This document shows positions 255 to 23,821 of a stretch of DNA of 25,816 bases, piece by piece; the stretch's first letter is position 1, and every line of letters starts with the position of its first letter. The notes under the pieces are model-generated. The model was not told where the DNA came from. It saw nothing but the letters and a program-made list of their open reading frames with translations, and did not search any database. This stretch comes from a virus (Duplodnaviria > Heunggongvirae > Uroviricota > Caudoviricetes), in IMG/VR virus record IMGVR_UViG_648276652_000013. One strand, given 5' to 3'. The translations under genes were made by a program, and so were the position numbers.

Positions 255-1065
255 GGTCAATCTATACAAAGATAGATTATTTAGAATAGCCCCCGCTACA
301 ATATTCACCGCACTGATTTCTATAGTCATAATATTGTATTTAACAAACTACCCAAACCCATCAAATTACCTACATGCAAAGGACGTATTTAGGTGGATGG
401 ATATGGGTTTATTTTACAATTATCCACCAATGAACTACTTCAAGGACTCTTGGATTTTTCTTGGTGTCTTTTGGACGCTGCAATGGGAATGGGGATTCTA
501 TTTTTCTCTGCCGTTACTATATCTCTTCAGAAAAAATGGAACAGCTTTTGTTCTGGCTCTGATGTTTATATTTGTTTACTTAATTGGATTCATACCCGCA
601 CTTAACAATATAAAAGCAGGAATATGTATATTATTTGTTGCGGGTATGTTGTGTTATGAACTAATTGGTAAGGTTAGGCTAAATAAAATAACATGCGAGA
701 TTATTTTATTGGTCAGTTTGGTTGGGATTTTCACTTATCAACCAGAGCTATACTCGACCACTATGCTGCCATGGTATTTTTGCATGCTATTTTCGATATG
801 CAAAGGAGCCAATTTATTTGGCGTGCTATCATTTAATGGTTTCGTAAGGCTTGGAAACGCCAGTTTTAGCATTTATGTTTTACACAGCGTTGTTTTGTAC
901 ACGCTTTTCACTTGGATGCATACGAGTAATATAATAAATGAGCCAGAAGACTTTAGGGTTATTTATTTAATTGGCAGCTTTGGAATGGTTTGTGTGATTT
1001 CATCTTTATGTTACGCATTGATAGAAAGGCCATTCATTAATCTTGGCAGGAAAGTTAAATTATAA
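255..1065 (+). pseudogene. Acyltransferase family 3 (O-antigen/polysaccharide O-acetyltransferase-like) integral membrane protein, 5'-truncated
   Basis: The track ORF 334-1065 begins at a TTG, but the frame is open back to 253 and encodes ...DRLFRIAPATIFTALISIV..., matching the mid-protein RxxRIxP motif region of acyltransferase-3 proteins. The protein is multi-pass hydrophobic throughout. The N-terminal roughly 100 aa expected for the family are absent and the frame ends at the IS boundary. Very AT-rich (about 28% GC in a 60-nt sample). Confidence 0.6.
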
Positions 1066-1737: not shown

Positions 1738-2799
1738 TCAACTCCCAAACGCCAGGTAATAAATAGCGTACGTGCCGCTTGTATTCGTATAAACGTTAAA
1801 ACGGTCAGTTCCAGGGATATATGTATTAAACGAGACTGTGTCGGCATATAACCCGTTGCTGACTAATGTCACGACAACGCTTGAGCAAGCATTTGGGAAT
1901 GGTATTGGGAAGAAGACCTCATTACCTGCAGTTCCAGAGGCGATTCCAGATGCATTACCCCCCATCACCACCATGCCACCAGGAAGTTTGTACCAAAAAG
2001 CTGATGCTGTAGATCCGCTTAAAAACGAACTCATATCAGGTATTTGTGACGCTCCCGTACCTACGTTTCTTGTGGCTGTTGTTCCAAGCCCTAGGACGCT
2101 CCTTAATCCTGCCGCATCTTTTCCACTAAGAGTGGTGAGAGTTGCATTCAGAGGTTGGGCACCAACATCCGACGCAGACGGCTTACGCTGGTCATGGTAC
2201 AACTCACTGATTTCAGGATTTCCATTATAAGTCTGTCGCCCAAGGAAAGCTCTGAATGCCCCACCATATGAAACAGCCAGCTGCGCCCATTCTGTCGATG
2301 TCGGGCCTGCTGCCTGCATTAAAGCCACACTTAGCGGGTAAAGATTGTTCGCCTGATATGGTTCATACATGAATCCACCGACATGGCTATTCCCGGCTGC
2401 ACTACCTTGCAGCCTACTCCCGACACCAAAATTTCCCTTATGTAAAACGTCTGATAAACCAAGGTTTTCGAGAGCCGTTTTCACCGTGCCATCCGATTTG
2501 ATATCACCAAACGGATTCTTGCGGCTCAGGTATTCAACAGCAAACCCCGATCCCAGCAATTCAACAAAACCGGGCAGATCACCATTATCAAGCACATCCC
2601 GTTGCGTTTTATCACTTACAAACTGGGCCAGAGCTGCAGCAATAAAGCTGGCCTGCCGAATAACCTTATTGACTTGCGCACTGGAGGCTTTCCCTGCTGT
2701 AAATCCGGATAAAAGCGCGGGCAACGCTTCCCATTCCTCCTGCGATATAACATTGGCATTTCGATCCGTTGCAAACGCTTTAAAGTCATTTTTCGCCAT
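1738..2799 (-). CDS. Tail fibre protein
   Basis: Starts MAKNDFKAFATDRNANVISQEEWEALPALLSGF... (internal ATG at 2799 overlapping the upstream stop). Gly/Ser/Thr-rich C-terminal half; located between baseplate genes and Tfa. Confidence 0.7.
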   Translation of the reverse strand: MAKNDFKAFATDRNANVISQEEWEALPALLSGFTAGKASSAQVNKVIRQASFIAAALAQFVSDKTQRDVLDNGDLPGFVELLGSGFAVEYLSRKNPFGDIKSDGTVKTALENLGLSDVLHKGNFGVGSRLQGSAAGNSHVGGFMYEPYQANNLYPLSVALMQAAGPTSTEWAQLAVSYGGAFRAFLGRQTYNGNPEISELYHDQRKPSASDVGAQPLNATLTTLSGKDAAGLRSVLGLGTTATRNVGTGASQIPDMSSFLSGSTASAFWYKLPGGMVVMGGNASGIASGTAGNEVFFPIPFPNACSSVVVTLVSNGLYADTVSFNTYIPGTDRFNVYTNTSGTYAIYYLAFGS

Positions 2800-3479
2800 C
2801 AGAGTAATACTCCCCATGCTCCTACATCAAAACCACTGATGAATTCGTTATCCATATCAAAACCAAAAAATTTTGAGCCTTCCGATGGGGTTTCCACCGA
2901 AGGTGTTTCAATGCCACCCGCCCATACCCCGGCAGCTTTTACTGTGAGATACCCCTGTTTAATTGCCGCAATTAACTCACGCGATACATCTGAAATATCA
3001 GTATCAGGAAAGACCCAGACCGATATCGTCATGTCCTGGTTATCGACTATCTGCATTCGCAGCCCGGATCCTGCTGTTGCAGCGTCAAGAATTGCCGGAA
3101 GCGAATCATTCCGTCCATCCCAGTTATTAATCGCAATCTTCGCTTTAAGAATGACACGATAAGTTTCATCGCTGAGGTACATGTATCCGGAATCAGGATC
3201 GTATGGTCCCTGCCATACCCCCTGATCATATCCAAGCCCGTCGGTATCCCAGCTGAAATAGACACCTGAGATAGGCTGGCTGACAACACGGCTACGTCCG
3301 ATCCACAATCCCAGAATGTCAAGTTGCACACCAACCGCAGAGTCAATATCAAATGCAGTAATCAGCCCTCTGGTGGCAGCCGCAACATCAATAAGCGGCC
3401 GGGTCATCAGATCAACATGCGCAAGAAATTTAGGTTTGGTGGCGTGGTAGTTCGTGATTAGTTCGGTGTATTTGCTCAT
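2799..3479 (-). CDS. Baseplate/tail protein (Mu gp48 / P2 gpI / DUF2313-like)
   Basis: 226-aa ORF immediately downstream of the baseplate-J-like gene, coupled by overlap; position and size fit the gpI/gp48 family. Family assignment from memory only. Confidence 0.55.
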   Translation of the reverse strand: MSKYTELITNYHATKPKFLAHVDLMTRPLIDVAAATRGLITAFDIDSAVGVQLDILGLWIGRSRVVSQPISGVYFSWDTDGLGYDQGVWQGPYDPDSGYMYLSDETYRVILKAKIAINNWDGRNDSLPAILDAATAGSGLRMQIVDNQDMTISVWVFPDTDISDVSRELIAAIKQGYLTVKAAGVWAGGIETPSVETPSEGSKFFGFDMDNEFISGFDVGAWGVLL

Positions 3480-4675
3480 GACTCCACCGTTATAACGATA
3501 TTTTCCGGGGTACAGGACGCAGATTCGTTGTATCTGATATCAATGTTTGATGACGACAAAGCCCCCGGGGATTTCCCAATCGTCAGTTCCTGAATATCGT
3601 AATAGCGTGCATTCCCGCCACTCACCACGCCAAGATTCGCCGGTGAGTAAATGCGACTTAAAAGGACCGAATCACCAATCGTCAAACTATTGATATAGTC
3701 GGAAATAGCCTGCTGGATCTGCTGCCCTATCTGTGAGGTATAACCCGTAAAAACTTTTAATTTAATCCGGGCATAAACAGGCACATCACTGGAACGCGAG
3801 AATTTGATTACATGGGGATTGCCGTATTTATCCGGAACCGTAACGGATGTTGTACCGTGAGTGGCTGTCCCCTGGCCTTTATTCCCTCTGATAGCCTGAG
3901 CAATATCCGTCACATCACCGCCATCCACAATTACAGCAACAGAGTGTGGCGGTAACCCGTTACCGTCCTCCGAACCAGTATCGTTTTCATAGAGTTTGTG
4001 GCGGGTTACACCGGTAACATTAGAAACAGCACCATCCAGTGCTTCAAATGGGGTTATTGATGGCAACGCAACACTTTGCGACTGGCGGATACGTAACTCA
4101 GCATCAGTTTCTGCCGGAGAGCCAACAGTAGCCGCAGCAGGATTAGTTACCGAAACCCAGCCACGGGTTGGCGTATTAATTTCAGTGATAGTTCCAGCCA
4201 GCGCCGCCACTGCACCACTGACGGAACATGTTGCGGTCGCCATCACTGTACCATCCACGCCGACCACCACTGAAGCAGGCAAACGCCATATCACATTATT
4301 ACTGTCTTTCACGCTGCCATTAATGATGGTTGTTCCGGCAGTTCCTGTAAGAAGCAAATCAACCGTAGAGTTCGTCGCGCCTTTACGTGAAATACCATTT
4401 ATTTTCACGTTACTGGTCAGTGCAGCCCCATAGCCGGTTGCCGGTGAAAAACAGTTGTAGACAGTTATCGCCATATTATTGGCATCATGAATCGCCAGCG
4501 CCATCAGAGCCACCATCTGGCCGTCTTTGCTGTCCGGTTCGAGGTAGGCATCACTGCCATAAATCTGCTGAAAATAGCTAATCAGGGTGCTGAGTATCGT
4601 CTGATAATCAGGCGCACTGATCCCCTCCGCGGTTACCTTTGCAGATAAACCGAGAGAATCAAGGTTCAGAGCCAT
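3476..4675 (-). CDS. Baseplate J-like protein (Mu gp47 / P2 gpJ family)
   Basis: 399-aa ORF in conserved synteny spike-wedge-J-I-fibre; start overlaps the upstream stop. Confidence 0.65.
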   Translation of the reverse strand: MALNLDSLGLSAKVTAEGISAPDYQTILSTLISYFQQIYGSDAYLEPDSKDGQMVALMALAIHDANNMAITVYNCFSPATGYGAALTSNVKINGISRKGATNSTVDLLLTGTAGTTIINGSVKDSNNVIWRLPASVVVGVDGTVMATATCSVSGAVAALAGTITEINTPTRGWVSVTNPAAATVGSPAETDAELRIRQSQSVALPSITPFEALDGAVSNVTGVTRHKLYENDTGSEDGNGLPPHSVAVIVDGGDVTDIAQAIRGNKGQGTATHGTTSVTVPDKYGNPHVIKFSRSSDVPVYARIKLKVFTGYTSQIGQQIQQAISDYINSLTIGDSVLLSRIYSPANLGVVSGGNARYYDIQELTIGKSPGALSSSNIDIRYNESASCTPENIVITVES

Positions 4676-5028
4676 TACGCCTCCGATGTAACAGTCGTTA
4701 TTCCATAGAGAGTGTCGATTTCAGCGGAAAACATGACACGTCGGGTCGTGGTATCCACCGTCGTATTGAAAGAGAGGATTGATTTAACGCCCTGCGTTTC
4801 GAGGATGCGCTTACGGATCGCCAGGTTGTAAGTTTCTGGTTTTTGCCTGCCCAGCACGGACTGGATCCACGGTGTTCCCTCTGTGGTATCAAGAAACCAT
4901 TGCCCATACCACAATTCGAATCGCGTTTTCACAGCCTGCGCTACGGCCTCAGGCGAGTTAATCAGCCAGGTGTCATCACCGCTGCCAAAGGTGTAATCGC
5001 CATCGGCGTCTTCACGTCTGTATCGCAT
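4675..5028 (-). CDS. Baseplate wedge protein (Mu gp46 / P2 gpW / T4 gp25-like)
   Basis: 117-aa ORF between the spike and J-like genes, translationally coupled on both sides. Confidence 0.55.
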   Translation of the reverse strand: MRYRREDADGDYTFGSGDDTWLINSPEAVAQAVKTRFELWYGQWFLDTTEGTPWIQSVLGRQKPETYNLAIRKRILETQGVKSILSFNTTVDTTTRRVMFSAEIDTLYGITTVTSEA

Positions 5029-5780
5029 CAGTTTACTCCGTCGGTATTGCTTCCACCGCGCTGAACACCACCATGAGTGTGCGTATCATCGATTGGCTTG
5101 CCGTTAGCCTTCACGCTACCCAAAAACTCAACAGCACCAGTGATTTTTGAAGCCACACCAGAAACAACAGACCCCACCATGCCTCCCATCCAGGTTAACA
5201 GGCCATGAATGGTTACTTTCTCAGAAAAATCAGCCAGAGGGGCAACCACATCAAGGCCCCCCGGAGCGACAATTTTAATTTTCCTGGTATCAGGATTAAG
5301 CTCAAAATAGGTGCTGCCGTCATCACTACGCAACTGTGTGGCACTGGTATTAATACCGCTAATCTTCCTTGCCTGCGACTGGGGACCGACAATACAAAAC
5401 GCATCCGATAAATCATGCATTCTGTCATCGACCGGCTCCTGTATCCCGCCACTCTGCCACCAGAAATCAATACAACGATCGGCAAAAATCACCAAACATT
5501 CATCACCGGCTTTAACTGGAAACGTTAGCGTACAGCCTCCGCCACGCGGGAATACCACTGGCACATCCACCAGCAATGGGTAATTTTTGGTAATGCGGTT
5601 GCCGTCGTTATCAATTTCAACGTAACGGATAGCAGGCTGTACAACCGCCGTCACCGCATCAGGAGCGAATGACTGAACAATGCCAGGCAAGGCGACACGG
5701 ATCTGGTTCTTTGTTGTTTCCCGTTCAGATTTAAATGTTTCGGCAAGGTCGCCGCTGCGGGTCTGGTCAGATACTGCCAT
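5028..5780 (-). CDS. Baseplate central spike / assembly protein V (Mu gp45-like, gp138-N family)
   Basis: 250 aa with a C-terminal DDTHTHGG motif typical of spike-tip metal-binding HxH; SD GGAG upstream of the ATG at 5780. Confidence 0.65.
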   Translation of the reverse strand: MAVSDQTRSGDLAETFKSERETTKNQIRVALPGIVQSFAPDAVTAVVQPAIRYVEIDNDGNRITKNYPLLVDVPVVFPRGGGCTLTFPVKAGDECLVIFADRCIDFWWQSGGIQEPVDDRMHDLSDAFCIVGPQSQARKISGINTSATQLRSDDGSTYFELNPDTRKIKIVAPGGLDVVAPLADFSEKVTIHGLLTWMGGMVGSVVSGVASKITGAVEFLGSVKANGKPIDDTHTHGGVQRGGSNTDGVN

Positions 5781-5798
5781 TTAGTAGGCTCCAGAAAG

Positions 5799-5830
5799 CA
5801 AAAAACCCGCCAAGTGGCGGGTTTGAATTT
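5799..5830 (-). terminator. Intrinsic terminator ending the two-gene insert
   Basis: Stem CCCGCC / GGCGGG (5806-5811 / 5816-5821) with loop AAGT; on the minus strand it is followed by a T-run (complement of the A-run at 5799-5805). Sits 15-45 nt past the stop of the 142-aa gene. Confidence 0.75.
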
Positions 5831-5844
5831 TGAGAAATTTCAGC

Positions 5845-6273
5845 TTATGCAGTTAACGAGTCATCACCAATCTTCAGTAATTGATTAACGATTGCATCGA
5901 CCTCTTCCGCATCCAGAATTACACTTCTCGCGGTAATCCGGTTGATTTTCCGCTCAAGCTTGTAATCAGAATTAACACGTTGGGCATGCGTCATTTTCAG
6001 TTTAACGCCGATTTTCTTTACTGCGTTAACATCAACATCGTTAAGTGCAGCTGCCTCACCACTACAAAAGGCCGTATAGACTCGCATGTGAACTCCACCT
6101 TTTAGTTTTTCACCATCTTGTGTAGCGGTCGGTACCAGATTGTTGGTGATCCGTAAGGCGGAATGGTACATACCATAGTATGCTCGGCTAATAGCATTTC
6201 TCGTCCACATCTCACCGTTTAGAGCCAGGGAATGCTTAGCCAATTCAAGAAAACAGGTATGCTCAACCGACAT
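5845..6273 (-). CDS. Hypothetical protein (142 aa), distal gene of the inserted cassette; possible HEPN-like R-x6-H motif
   Basis: Start overlaps the upstream gene stop (ATGA at 6273). AT-rich (about 38% GC in a 60-nt sample versus about 53% in neighbouring tail genes). Contains RAYYGMYH (R-x6-H) near the N-terminus. No family recognised. Confidence 0.6.
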   Translation of the reverse strand: MSVEHTCFLELAKHSLALNGEMWTRNAISRAYYGMYHSALRITNNLVPTATQDGEKLKGGVHMRVYTAFCSGEAAALNDVDVNAVKKIGVKLKMTHAQRVNSDYKLERKINRITARSVILDAEEVDAIVNQLLKIGDDSLTA

Positions 6274-7004
6274 TAGAGTTCCCCGGCTTCAAAGCATCCG
6301 ACGCATTCTGAATCCGCAAGCCCCGCAATAATAATCTCATCAGCCAAGGCATTATTCATCTGCGAAAGAAGCACTGGATCGTCTGTTTTGACTTCAACGA
6401 ACAGCGTATCAAGTTCTGACATTACATAAAAAGCATGAGCGCCAGCAAGACGAGCGCGGTACTTTTCTGCAACGTTCATCATGAGCCGCCCAATAGTTTT
6501 TAGCTCCTGAGCATGATCTTTTTGGGTATGCAGATAATTGAGCGTGTCATACCATTTGCCCATATCTTCAGGGCGCGGTACTTCCATTGCAGTTAGCATC
6601 GGCATCACCTTTTCAAGCAAATCGATATCAACCCAGTATGCAGAAATTGTAGCAACCTCAGCCAATATCGTTGGATTAAGTGAATCAGATGCTTTCTGAA
6701 TCATCACATACTGGCGAGCATGCAAACCTAAGTTACGCAGCGCAATCGTATAGTTACAAAAAGAAACTGGATCGTTAGGCGCTATTCTCAACCCCCGCTC
6801 ACAGAGTGAACATCCTTCATCTATTTCACCAAGAACAAGCTTAGCTAAGCCTTCAATTGATAGCCCCTGATAACGTTCAGGTAGTTTCTTCGCTTCACGA
6901 ATGATTCGATGGATTTCAAACTCACTCAGAAGGTTTTCACCCTTAGTTAATGAAGGAGTCAGAAGATCTAACAGTTCTCCTGATTTTGGCTGCGCTAAAC
7001 TCAT
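6273..7004 (-). CDS. Hypothetical protein (243 aa), proximal gene of the inserted cassette; probably all-alpha, repeat-like
   Basis: ORF preceded by a 149-bp non-coding leader with AGGA upstream of the ATG; AT-rich; no family recognised. Confidence 0.6.
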   Translation of the reverse strand: MSLAQPKSGELLDLLTPSLTKGENLLSEFEIHRIIREAKKLPERYQGLSIEGLAKLVLGEIDEGCSLCERGLRIAPNDPVSFCNYTIALRNLGLHARQYVMIQKASDSLNPTILAEVATISAYWVDIDLLEKVMPMLTAMEVPRPEDMGKWYDTLNYLHTQKDHAQELKTIGRLMMNVAEKYRARLAGAHAFYVMSELDTLFVEVKTDDPVLLSQMNNALADEIIIAGLADSECVGCFEAGEL

Positions 7005-7153
7005 GTTTTAGTTATTCCTGGCTTTAATGAAGTAGCATATCGATGGCAATCCACCATCAAAAAGTCAGTGCAGTGTAATCGCTCGTCTCAAAAAACAACA
7101 GTTTTTAGAGCACATTTTGTTGTTTTTCAGGCGTTACGAATTTCAGGTTACCT

Positions 7154-7495
7154 TCACCCAGCCACTTTTTTACAAGGGAAAGATCCGATGATTTTCGGCG
7201 CATCCATGCTGTTCTGCAGAAGCTGGACATTCAGGAATCGCGTTTCGGTACCAGGGCGACGAATGTATTCAAAGCCGTAGTTGTTACCGTCTTTGGCAGG
7301 CATAAGCCCCATGTCTACTTTCAAACCATTGGTACCCAGTTCGGTGATTTTTTGAGAGGTAACTCTTTCACCGTTGATAGTCGATAACTCGCCCTGGTTT
7401 GCAACCATAGTGTAGCCACCGCATTTAACCGTGAAGCCATCCGCCCACGCGCTGCACGCAGAAAAGACAGCTAACAGAAAAATAATACCCCTCAT
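7154..7495 (-). CDS. Small secreted protein (113 aa) with N-terminal signal peptide
   Basis: MRGIIFLLAVFSACSAWA followed by DGF: hydrophobic core and AxA-type cleavage site. Mature part has two Cys. SD GGGGA overlaps the hub gene end, so it is tightly coupled to the hub gene. Confidence 0.6.
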   Translation of the reverse strand: MRGIIFLLAVFSACSAWADGFTVKCGGYTMVANQGELSTINGERVTSQKITELGTNGLKVDMGLMPAKDGNNYGFEYIRRPGTETRFLNVQLLQNSMDAPKIIGSFPCKKVAG

Positions 7496-7498
7496 TGC

Positions 7499-22190: not shown

Positions 22191-22742
22191 TTAGCCCATC
22201 ATTTTTCTATACGCTTCTGCAACCTGCTCCGGCGTTAAGTTGGTAATTTCTGTTCTGACTGGTCCTCCGTCAGCACCAGTCACTTCATTTTTGACATTGT
22301 CTTTAAACGCCTGAACAGAAACATGACGCCCGAGCAACTCAAGGTTTTTAACCTTATCAGGCCATTTGATTTTCTTCAGAAGTGCGGCGCTATCTGCGGA
22401 TGCCATCTCCACGACATCCATTCCTGATAACGTTGTGCGCCATACCTTAGGCCAGTCTTTAATGGGTTTTAGCTCACCGTTTTGCAGGAGAATGTCAAGC
22501 ACATCCATCTGGTCGATTTCAATAAGGCGATTAAGTACATATTCTGCATTAATACCAACAAGATCATTGCGTTGCGCTTTCAGTTCGGCGATTCTTAACT
22601 TGATGTCAGGTTTTGACAGGTTTTCGGATGCGGTACGGTTAGCTGTCTTTGCGCTGTACCCCGCCCGAATAGCCGCTTGCGTGGCGTTTAAATCGATGAG
22701 GTACTCGCGACAGAACATCTCTTGTTTGTCGGTGAGTGCCAT
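22191..22742 (-). CDS. Terminase small subunit (Terminase_2-like)
   Basis: N-terminus [34 protein letters not shown] is a hallmark of this small-subunit family. Confidence 0.8.
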
Positions 22743-22766
22743 GACAAAGTCTCAATTGGATTGAAA

Positions 22767-23039
22767 ATGAGTGATTTATTACTAATTAAAAACTGGTTAA
22801 TTGACCATCATGCACTATCGATTTTCTTTGGGTTTTTATCGGCTGGGTTATGGATCAAATCAGCAACAGCCAAAGTCAAAACAGGTAGAAGCACCGTTGT
22901 AGCAATTACATTTGATGATCCCAAAAAAAATGTAGATCTTCACGAATTTTTCTTAACTGCGCGGTTACAGTCTAAATATAACTCATATGCAGCTTTCGCT
23001 GCTGCTGTAACTGTGATTTTGCAAATGGCTGGCTATTAG
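22767..23039 (+). CDS. Small membrane protein (90 aa), plus strand, opposite to the late operon
   Basis: From the internal ATG at 22767 (MSDLLLIKNW...): an N-terminal hydrophobic segment (ALSIFFGFLSAGLWI) and a C-terminal hydrophobic tail; AT-rich. Weak RBS, so uncertain. Confidence 0.4.
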   Translation: MSDLLLIKNWLIDHHALSIFFGFLSAGLWIKSATAKVKTGRSTVVAITFDDPKKNVDLHEFFLTARLQSKYNSYAAFAAAVTVILQMAGY

Positions 23040-23127
23040 AAAACCTTAACCAGGATATTATTTACCTTTATCAATATCAGTTAACGGCTCAAAGTGTAAT
23101 GGTTCCACATTCTCCTAATGGAGTTAT

Positions 23128-23241
23128 TTACTCGCCCGTCTCGGTAGCCAGCTGCATAAAGCCATTAACCAGCTCAGGCTGACGTCGTGACGTCTTGCCC
23201 GTAAAGGTTTCGCCTGTTTGGGTTTGGTAGATGTCGGACAT
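23128..23241 (-). CDS. Small ORF (37 aa) with strong Shine-Dalgarno
   Basis: AAAGAGG lies 6 nt upstream of the ATG; translation MSDIYQTQTGETFTGKTSRRQPELVNGFMQLATETGE. Not in the track (under 60 aa). Could also be a gene remnant. Confidence 0.3.
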   Translation of the reverse strand: MSDIYQTQTGETFTGKTSRRQPELVNGFMQLATETGE

Positions 23242-23355
23242 TGAGAGCCTCTTTATCTGCTTGTGGGGATATATGGTTAATTATCCTCTGTAGGGGATAC
23301 TGCCATCACAATGGGGAGAATCATCGTAATGGCAATAAAAACCGCCCATAGGCAG

Positions 23356-23763
23356 TTAATCTGAAAGACCAAATTTCTTTTTTGCGTAGGATTTTAGAAG
23401 CTCTACACCAACATCTTTCAATACCGATAATGGTTGATCGCTAATTGTTTTTAGCTTCTCAAAAACATCCTTTTGTTGAAGGGTTTCTGCAAACTCTTGG
23501 CCTGATGACGTGAGTCTTACATTGGCTGGCCATTCACGGATTTCATTAAGCCCAATAGTAAGTCCTAATTTCTTAGGATCGCCTATTTCTAGAAAATGGT
23601 TACTGATATAACCTCTCTCAATCAATTGGTAGTAATGAAAGAGTCCTTTATCGCTGCTTATTTCGTATCCAGCTTTTTTAAGGTCATTAGCTGATATCAA
23701 TGGTCCGCCAGCCTTAATAAAAACCCCTAACATTCCCTTCAAGTATTCCAGATCGGTCTGCAT
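23356..23763 (-). CDS. Hypothetical protein (135 aa) in AT-rich island
   Basis: Clean ORF, about 35% GC in a 60-nt sample, between Rz and the terminase genes; no family confidently recognised. Confidence 0.55.
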   Translation of the reverse strand: MQTDLEYLKGMLGVFIKAGGPLISANDLKKAGYEISSDKGLFHYYQLIERGYISNHFLEIGDPKKLGLTIGLNEIREWPANVRLTSSGQEFAETLQQKDVFEKLKTISDQPLSVLKDVGVELLKSYAKKKFGLSD

Positions 23764-23821
23764 AAATTACCTCCATCCTGAGAAATAGAGATAATATTAC
23801 CCTTAAAATTCTTCATTAACA

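Follow-up and report, generated by a model that had tools for sequence, protein, structure and literature searches.

A TPR-HEPN gene pair in a variable prophage cargo slot as a candidate abortive infection module

Several HEPN proteins have been described as effectors that are carried by prophages or restrained by a partner. HepS from the Gifsy-1 prophage of Salmonella is an anticodon nuclease, the activator of which is the tail-tip protein J (PMC13043305), Tha from a Staphylococcus aureus prophage is an RNase activated by tail proteins (PMC11087260), and both are encoded in accessory slots and protect the lysogen by abortive infection (Abi) triggered by an incoming phage. AbiV from Lactococcus is a metal-independent HEPN RNase that degrades rRNA and is restrained by an antitoxin (bioRxiv 10.1101/2024.05.05.592566). 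Regarding arrangements of two genes, the HEPN families LA2681 and AbiU2 occur in operons with TPR or Sel1 proteins (PMC3710099, Table 1), and the DefensePredictor system DS-28 consists of a HEPN protein and a 252-amino-acid (aa) partner, for which defense was replicated in E. coli (PMC13092281). In the present study, we analyzed a cassette of two genes on the minus strand of a 25,816-nucleotide stretch of viral DNA (IMG/VR record IMGVR_UViG_648276652_000013; hereafter referred to as the window), which encode a 243-aa acidic TPR-like protein (6273-7004) and a 142-aa HEPN protein (5845-6273), and for which HepS, Tha, and AbiV may serve, by analogy, as the precedent for a role in Abi.

We assign a probability of approximately 0.5 to the reading that this pair is a toxin-antitoxin (TA)-like Abi module, in which the TPR partner acts as a neutralizer and sensor and the HEPN protein acts as an RNase effector or toxin, including the anti-phage mechanism set out below. 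It is very likely that the region is a mobile accessory cassette and not a component of the tail. Prophage hotspot cargo that combines a HEPN effector with a repeat protein is of a known kind, and the specific family and its non-canonical HEPN domain are undescribed.

The HEPN protein and its TPR-like partner

The open reading frame (ORF) listing places both genes on the minus strand, in agreement with the initial annotation, and they correspond to RefSeq WP_000050470.1 and WP_000110002.1, which are hypothetical proteins in E. coli WAT, the chromosome of which is a 100% match to positions 5700-7600 of the window. The genes are translationally coupled; they meet in the sequence TAATG at 6273, in which the stop codon of the 243-aa gene and the start codon of the 142-aa gene have a single base in common, and the overlap by ATGA that had been read there needs to be corrected accordingly.

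In an AlphaFold (AF2) model with a pLDDT of 90.9, the 142-aa protein folds into two helical hairpins (residues 5-17 with 21-40, and 82-104 with 112-140) on either side of an insert (41-81), which is the fold of the HEPN superfamily. HEPN chains accounted for seven of the eight best Foldseek matches in the PDB, including AF0298 (2hsb), TT1696 (1ufb), 2q00, sacsin (3o10), and 1wty, and HepT (7bxo, 6m6u) and YutE (1ylm) followed at lower ranks; the E-values of the HEPN matches were weak (0.01 or worse), with probabilities of up to 1.0 and TM-scores of approximately 0.5-0.67. A profile built from 25 relatives had 2hsb as its sole match in the PDB (E 0.16), with both motifs aligned, sRAYYgmYHsAl with STAYYAMFHAAKAM and KLK..H..Rv.aDYkL with KLSRAFDLREESDYGI, and a phmmer search of PDB sequences with the 142-aa protein returned nothing at E <=10.

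Searches with families of sequences gave the same assignment. The PADLOC model HEPN_IX weakly matched 18 of the 25 relatives. JGI gives several relatives the label UPF0332, and precomputed PF05168 labels were also present on relatives. When the profile was run against 1.84 billion cluster representatives (50% identity), approximately 1200 proteins were obtained at E <=0.001, and nearly all of the 150 matches listed were standalone proteins of approximately 110-165 aa. The Pfam HEPN family PF05168 matched 20 of 50 sampled profile-linked homologues, with a best E-value of 6.8e-7; neither window protein had a significant Pfam match, and the link between the 142-aa protein and PF05168 is, thus, transitive via its homologues. 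Based on these profiles and the model, the 142-aa protein is predicted to be a HEPN domain of the AF0298/UPF0332 (HEPN-T, PF05168) type.

The conserved residues specify this assignment further. In the HEPN superfamily, the Rx4-6H motif is located where helix 3 ends, and the Ex3[KR] motif holds a second conserved acidic residue, while in the AF0298-type group, the motif histidine has been lost and a conserved N-terminal histidine could form an alternative active site (PMC3710099). Among 50 homologues with identities of 23-47%, E21, R25, Y32, Y33, H62, R99, D103, and Y104 were invariant, and R30 and H37 were retained in at least 90%. The Ex3[KR] motif is, thus, represented by E21-x3-R25 in all of them; at the end of helix 3, R99 is present and the position of the canonical histidine is occupied by D103/Y104 in all 50 homologues; and conserved histidines (H37 and H62) are located N-terminal to this degenerate motif. 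The sequence RAYYGMYH, which had been noted initially as reminiscent of the HEPN RNase motif, spans residues 30-37 in helix 2, and its H37 aligns with the histidine of AYYAMFHAA in AF0298. Since RAYYGMYH carries the alternative histidine of the subfamily and R99-x3-D103-Y104 corresponds to the canonical site, RAYYGMYH is a genuine HEPN-T signature and not the canonical catalytic motif. The early hint was correct at the levels of fold and family, as indicated by Foldseek, the profile match in the PDB, HEPN_IX, and the PF05168 matches of homologues, and it did not hold for the catalytic motif, which belongs at the end of helix 3.

AF0298 itself is the closest described relative, being the best fold match as well as the only PDB profile match of the 142-aa family. 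The two share aYYa(m/f)(Y/F)Ha in helix 2, R-x3-DY in helix 3, and Ex3[KR], and in both the motif histidine is replaced and a conserved histidine is present N-terminally. However, classical HEPN-T genes are paired with minimal nucleotidyltransferases, whereas the 142-aa family is paired with a TPR-alpha/beta protein and has an additional invariant GG-x-H62 in the insert between helices 2 and 3. The pair resembles HepT/MntA (HEPN-MNT, type VII TA) in that a small HEPN gene lies downstream of, and is coupled to, the gene of a neutralizing partner. However, the adjacent 243-aa partner is not a nucleotidyltransferase, and the RX4HXY motif is absent from the 142-aa family; therefore, neutralization by AMPylation is not expected.

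HepS and Tha resemble the present pair as prophage-borne HEPN effectors in accessory slots; however, by their published descriptions, HepS consists of one protein with a canonical Rx4-6H motif (PMC13043305) and Tha is inhibited by Ith, a small antisense-encoded protein (PMC11087260), whereas in the TPR-HEPN pair, a TPR protein distinct from the effector would do the sensing and the active site would be non-canonical. AbiV is also a small HEPN protein and was grouped with AF0298-type HEPN-T by Anantharaman et al. 2013 (PMC3710099), but has an RNA antitoxin (type III) and an R91-x5-H97 motif; the TPR-HEPN locus contains neither tandem repeats nor an Rfam match of that kind, and the PADLOC AbiV model did not match the window protein or any of its 25 relatives at E <=1. 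LA2681, AbiU2, and DS-28 share the two-gene architecture of a HEPN protein with a helical-repeat or unknown partner, and, unlike the 142-aa protein, all retain the canonical Rx4-6H motif. The two genes of DS-28 are also in the reverse order, and neither window protein shows detectable homology to that system (hhalign probability <1%), and the identity of the pair with DS-28 was rejected on this basis. Neither the accessions nor the N-terminal peptides of the pair were present among the systems of the DefensePredictor paper, the supplements of which were partly covered.

The model of the 243-aa partner (pLDDT 90.5) comprises ten helices over residues 7-181, arranged as the tandem helix-turn-helix units of a TPR-like solenoid, followed by a beta-beta-alpha-beta segment over residues 186-240. 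We predict that the protein forms an acidic solenoid of the TPR-like kind, to which a small alpha/beta domain (alpha-beta-beta-alpha-beta) is appended at the C terminus; it had been regarded as repeat-like, which agrees with this fold, and as all-alpha, which does not apply to residues 186-240. It is strongly acidic (pI 4.84, net charge -13), whereas the 142-aa protein has a pI of 8.55. A phmmer search of PDB sequences with the 243-aa protein yielded only a sub-threshold match to a TFIIIC TPR protein.

Occurrence of the pair, the cargo slot, and control regions

A partner of 242-279 aa is encoded directly upstream of the HEPN gene in 13 of 14 contexts, and the partner-first order is constant in all 13. 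The homology of the partners was detected by hidden Markov model searches (E 1e-7 and 6e-7) and hhalign (98.6%, E 6e-16), and elsewhere the partner-HEPN junctions are overlaps or short gaps. In Enterobacterales, the partner has a pI of 4.4-5.1 and the HEPN protein is neutral to basic (pI 7.0-9.3); in three distant pairs, the pI of the partner is 5.2-6.3. Whenever the two were compared, divergence was faster in the partner than in the HEPN protein. A TA-like layout is, thus, apparent in the window pair, with the partner upstream, the TAATG overlap, and pI values of 4.84 and 8.55.

The genomic settings of the pair are diverse. It occupies the slot between baseplate hub and spike genes in E. coli, Salmonella (1139 collection blocks), and Ewingella; in Serratia and Enterobacter, it is located in a different myovirus among other morons, between genes of the tail-chaperone region and the tape-measure gene; in Lelliottia, it directly follows the tape-measure gene of a lambdoid siphovirus; and in Klebsiella phage vB_Kpn_Chronis, the sole deposited phage genome with a match, it lies between replication and lysis genes. 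A prophage of Xenorhabdus also carries it. Outside phages, the pair was found on the chromosomes of Methylocaldum (beside rplM-rpsI), Polaromonas, and Methylomonas (near a primase gene), and on a contig with Rhs and insertion sequence (IS) genes. Four different phage positions and several non-phage sites are represented across Gamma- and Betaproteobacteria.

The slot in the window belongs to an E. coli prophage that is lambdoid in its early part and SEN34-like (Brunovirus) in its late part. Among 5426 complete E. coli genomes, 336 have its flanks, and the TPR-HEPN cassette is present in only 32-33 of these (28 at >=99% identity), so that the pair is missing from approximately 90% of the prophages that share these flanks; carriers were isolated from pond water, dogs, otters, humans, chickens, pigs, and cattle. 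In a sample of 60 records, the distance between the flanks fell into at least 10 size classes. With the window cassette, it is 1901 bp, and the other cargos are a DUF4282 protein (approximately 880 bp), an HMG-box or hypothetical protein (979 bp), a 176-aa hydrophobic protein that is probably located in the membrane (1316 bp), a DUF2335 membrane protein (approximately 1490 bp), a YafO-family toxin with a 190-aa partner (approximately 1730 bp), a very divergent second TPR-HEPN allele (1881 bp; 31% and 47% identity to the window proteins), and unknowns at 1090, 1134, 1475, and 1959 bp. Still other genes fill the slot in the phages SEN34 and YP3. We regard this slot as a true cargo hotspot, and the initial view of the pair as accessory cargo was borne out by the small fraction of flank-sharing genomes that carry it and by the at least 10 other cargo types. 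Regarding the initial question of whether hub and spike are adjacent in related prophages without the insert, other cargo was found where the insert is absent, and a truly empty slot was never observed in the 60 sampled records.

Upstream, the slot is bounded by a conserved ORF for a 113-aa signal-peptide protein (7154-7495, minus strand; phrog_3443), which is outside the cassette, and the similarity between alleles ends at or within a few codons of its stop codon (7154). Each cargo type has its own leader. A PADLOC scan of the slot cargos gave no match at E <=0.01, except for a weak HEPN_IX match of the divergent pair. This divergent allele was found in E. coli 13E0780 (L019, 1645-2798) in the same slot with a different leader, and in approximately 3 of the 60 sampled records, which suggests repeated acquisition or diversifying exchange. 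In the pair that contains the YafO-family toxin (Pfam E 3.5e-17), the 190-aa protein and the toxin that follows it occupy 3042-3614 and 2624-3040 of locus L002 (both on the minus strand); the 190-aa protein has only a weak match to EAD5, an effector-associated domain, and the arrangement is not the usual one with a YafN antitoxin. In Yersinia phage YP3 (L018), a direct repeat of approximately 110 bp (at approximately 1590-1700 and 2510-2620), which contains a hairpin, a ribosome-binding site (RBS), and the initial codons of the gene that follows, brackets a 266-aa cargo gene and looks like the footprint of an insertion via duplication or recombination.

The base composition of the cassette deviates from that of its surroundings. 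The exact GC content is 44.1% in the 142-aa gene, 44.0% in the 243-aa gene, 37.6% in the leader, and 43.1% in the cassette as a whole (5826-7153), versus 52.0% in the flanking tail genes (hub 54.4%, spike 50.1%), and the GC content at third codon positions is 0.38-0.41 versus 0.47-0.61 in the flanks. Only 6.9% of windows of equal size across the 25.8 kb are equally AT-rich. This calculation supports the compositional contrast with the structural genes that had been noted initially.

The 149-nt leader (7005-7153, minus strand), the extent of which was confirmed by a reading of the sequence, is specific to the cassette and has an RBS (AGGA) at 7019-7016. It contains a promoter-like element at 7072-7101 (minus strand), with a -35-like CTGTTG (7101-7096), an 18-nt spacer, and a -10-like TACACT (7077-7072), which was not reported by a strict consensus promoter scan, presumably because of its weak -35 hexamer. 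At the homologous position, the leaders of Ewingella, Enterobacter, Serratia, and Klebsiella phage Chronis have a near-consensus TTGAA(A/G)-17-TA(C/A)ACT, the distance of which to the start codon is approximately 57-66 nt in Enterobacter, Serratia, and Chronis and 94 nt in Ewingella. In three of these leaders, the spacer holds a TTACC-N5-GGTAA palindrome, the left arm of which is degenerate in Chronis. Lelliottia (TTGTCG-18-TAAACT) and Salmonella (CTGTCG-18-TACACT) have a weaker -35 and retain the -10-like hexamer.

Downstream, an intrinsic terminator (5797-5824, minus strand), AAACCCGCC-ACTT-GGCGGGTTT followed by a T run, forms the other boundary of the slot; its stem-loop (5824-5803) has 9 bp, six of which are G-C pairs, with the loop ACTT, and is followed by TTTTTTGCTTT. 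The identical hairpin, AACCCGCC-N4-GGCGGGTTTTTT, in which the loop alone differs, ends eight of the nine slot loci compared, among them those of phage SEN34 and of all remaining E. coli cargo types examined, and is followed by an identical RBS of the spike gene; the slot of phage YP3 has a different terminator-like hairpin. Therefore, the terminator is real, as initially proposed, but is common to other slot cargos and not private to the cassette. A terminator is present downstream of the pair in eight Enterobacterales contexts, and that following the HEPN gene in Lelliottia, Enterobacter, Serratia, Chronis, and Xenorhabdus is of the CCCGCC/GGCGGG type. Among the loci compared, the hairpin AACCCGCC-N4-GGCGGGTTTTT is located upstream of the spike gene in L002-L004, L017, and L019-L021 and after the HEPN gene in L005-L007, L022, and L029. 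Morons may use it as a shared anchor for recombination during their exchange, or it may simply be a common convergent terminator; the idea that it is a scaffold of the slot alone was dropped because the same hairpin follows the pair in unrelated contexts. Regarding a type III RNA antitoxin or another RNA element, the cassette has no tandem repeats, and Rfam gave only sub-threshold attenuator-like matches on the terminator hairpin.

With its promoter-like leader, coupled genes, terminator, and compositional shift, the cassette has the classical layout of a moron, as had been suggested, and a promoter-like element and a terminator accompany the pair in other contexts as well; the leader sequence argues weakly for a promoter of its own. 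In having a fixed slot with conserved flanks and swappable cargo, a leader for each cargo, a terminator, and a deviating composition, the locus resembles the P2/P4 hotspots (Rousset et al. 2022, PMC9122126) and Hendrix-type morons, and differs from them in phage lineage and position, namely, the hub/spike junction of SEN34-like tails.

Proposed function and alternative explanations

We infer lysogenic expression, a physical interaction, catalysis, a trigger, and an anti-phage phenotype for the TA-like Abi module, which may be connected as follows. In the lysogen, the pair would be transcribed from a promoter of its own, and the TPR partner would bind the HEPN protein and keep it inactive in the manner of an antitoxin. 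The TPR partner may also present a sensing surface, such that the binding of a protein of another phage in the TPR groove, or the loss of a labile partner, would free the HEPN dimer. The dimer would then cleave RNA via a non-canonical site composed of R99, the alternative histidine H37 or H62, and E21-x3-R25, and the resulting arrest of translation would abort the infection.

Several observations weigh against this reading. The 142-aa protein lacks the canonical Rx4-6H motif, and the RNase activity of AF0298-type HEPN-T proteins is only a prediction in the literature that we found (PMC3710099). Neither protein had a significant match in PADLOC-DB v2.0.0, NCBIfam returned nothing, and PHROGs returned only families of unknown function for both. 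The non-phage neighbors observed are not recognizable defense islands, and one distant relative, from Mitsuaria, has a shorter upstream gene of 167 aa. The -35 hexamer in the window is weak, with two of six positions matching, which renders lysogenic expression uncertain, and the cassette is co-oriented with the late operon and, thus, could be expressed only late.

The PADLOC matches were also considered individually. Those for the window proteins were only HEPN_IX (E 0.0094, 14 bits) and PDC-M71B (E 0.037); HEPN_IX reached E 5.5e-4 among the relatives and 1.6e-4 with the divergent 13E0780 allele. A lead to PDC-M71A/B was rejected as noise because no more than 1 of 25 and 3 of 26 members of the family gave a match, at E >0.01. 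A literature search (UPF0332 with phage; Brunovirus/SEN34; HEPN with TPR and prophage or antitoxin) yielded no description of the pair or the slot. Taken together, no significant match to a named entry was obtained for the pair in the defense, family, and structure libraries, and it is undescribed in the literature found.

A plain addiction-type TA module, which would stabilize itself and its carrier (a prophage or an island) by post-segregational killing without phage defense, appears unlikely, although the gene order, translational coupling, and acidic/basic pairing are those of a TA system. The scattered, selfish-looking spread of the pair, with sites beside ribosomal-protein, IS, and Rhs genes and not in defense islands, is consistent with addiction, and a YafO-family toxin pair can occupy the same slot. 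However, the partner has no recognizable DNA-binding domain of the kind typical of type II antitoxins, its TPR solenoid of 180 residues is more elaborate than neutralization requires, and the Enterobacterales pair strongly prefers prophage accessory slots. Since several TA modules have turned out to be Abi systems (PMC13064643), the addiction and defense readings overlap.

It is rather improbable that the HEPN-T domain is non-catalytic, with a nucleotide- or RNA-binding or regulatory role, and that the pair serves the phage in counter-defense, in the control of host translation, or in the chaperoning of a phage or host factor by the TPR protein. This explanation has to accommodate eight polar or aromatic residues that are invariant down to 23% identity, including Ex3R, the motif arginine, and a histidine, a degree of conservation that would be more readily expected of an active site than of a loose binding surface; moreover, the presence of the pair outside phages argues against a phage-specific role.

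The position of the pair inside the tail module, its co-orientation with the tail genes, and the location of four phage contexts likewise in tail regions may be taken to indicate accessories of the assembly or structure of this tail type, but this identity was rejected and is effectively refuted by the distribution data, since the pair is missing from approximately 90% of the E. coli prophages with these flanks, unrelated cargo replaces it, the Chronis pair lies between replication and lysis genes, several bacteria carry the pair outside phages, the predicted folds are HEPN and TPR and not virion folds, and PHROGs gives no structural category. A tail-component fold or a conserved tail position had been named at the outset as what would overturn the accessory reading; what was found was the opposite on both counts.

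With regard to the TA-like Abi module, we put forward a broader proposal only tentatively, namely, that the pair represents an undescribed and widespread two-component Abi family in which a TPR-alpha/beta protein senses a phage protein and frees an AF0298/UPF0332 HEPN protein that cuts RNA via an alternative His/Arg site. If true, this would provide the first biological function of, and the first catalytic evidence for, the AF0298-type HEPN-T subfamily, and the hub/spike junction of SEN34-like prophages would be a new defense hotspot. If the pair is a defense or toxin module of either kind, it would add a new partner architecture (TPR-alpha/beta with a non-canonical HEPN domain) to the repertoire of HEPN effectors and provide a testable function for the UPF0332/AF0298 branch, the catalysis of which has so far only been predicted in the literature that we found; a slot in a common E. 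coli/Salmonella prophage lineage could also be mined for its other cargos, such as the YafO-like pairs, small membrane proteins, and unknowns. The cassette is compact (1.36 kb with its control regions) and simple to clone. Since hotspots, HEPN effectors, and TPR sensors are already established themes, the advance would be incremental and not conceptual.

Flanking genes and other AT-rich stretches of the window

The slot is flanked by two structural genes on the minus strand. The baseplate hub gene (7499-8560) matched phrog_196 (baseplate hub, E 5e-88) and, below the threshold, Pfam E217_GP41; the gene for the membrane-puncturing spike (5028-5780) has a Spike N-terminal domain (PF18352, E 3.6e-43) and a GpV Apex motif, in accordance with the WAT annotation. 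The cassette had been described as wedged between hub and spike; it is not directly beside the hub gene because the 113-aa ORF stands between them. In some genomes, this ORF is named STY1065/STY2022 family phage-derived protein. It is kept with most E. coli cargo types and its GC content (48%) is intermediate; it may itself be an older, fixed moron. A Q-family antiterminator precedes the late genes in the WAT record, which fits the Q-antiterminated late operon proposed as the setting of the cassette.

Two other stretches of the window are also AT-rich. The most AT-rich part is a GC trough of approximately 0.35 at 400-1000, where an ORF on the opposite strand (334-1065, plus strand) has a partial match to Acyl_transf_3 (E 2e-12) and, based on this match, looks like a lysogenic-conversion gene of the O-antigen acyltransferase type at the end of the prophage. 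For that end, the WAT annotation lists other genes, namely, those of tail-fibre assembly, gp53-like, and XF1762-family proteins, and the two sequences may, therefore, not be the same there. When the WAT annotation is used as a guide, a second low-GC stretch (22400-23800, 0.38-0.44) falls between the lysis genes and the gene for the small terminase; two of its ORFs, 23356-23763 (minus strand) and 22722-23039 (plus strand), have no Pfam match, and it is probably another slot for accessory genes.

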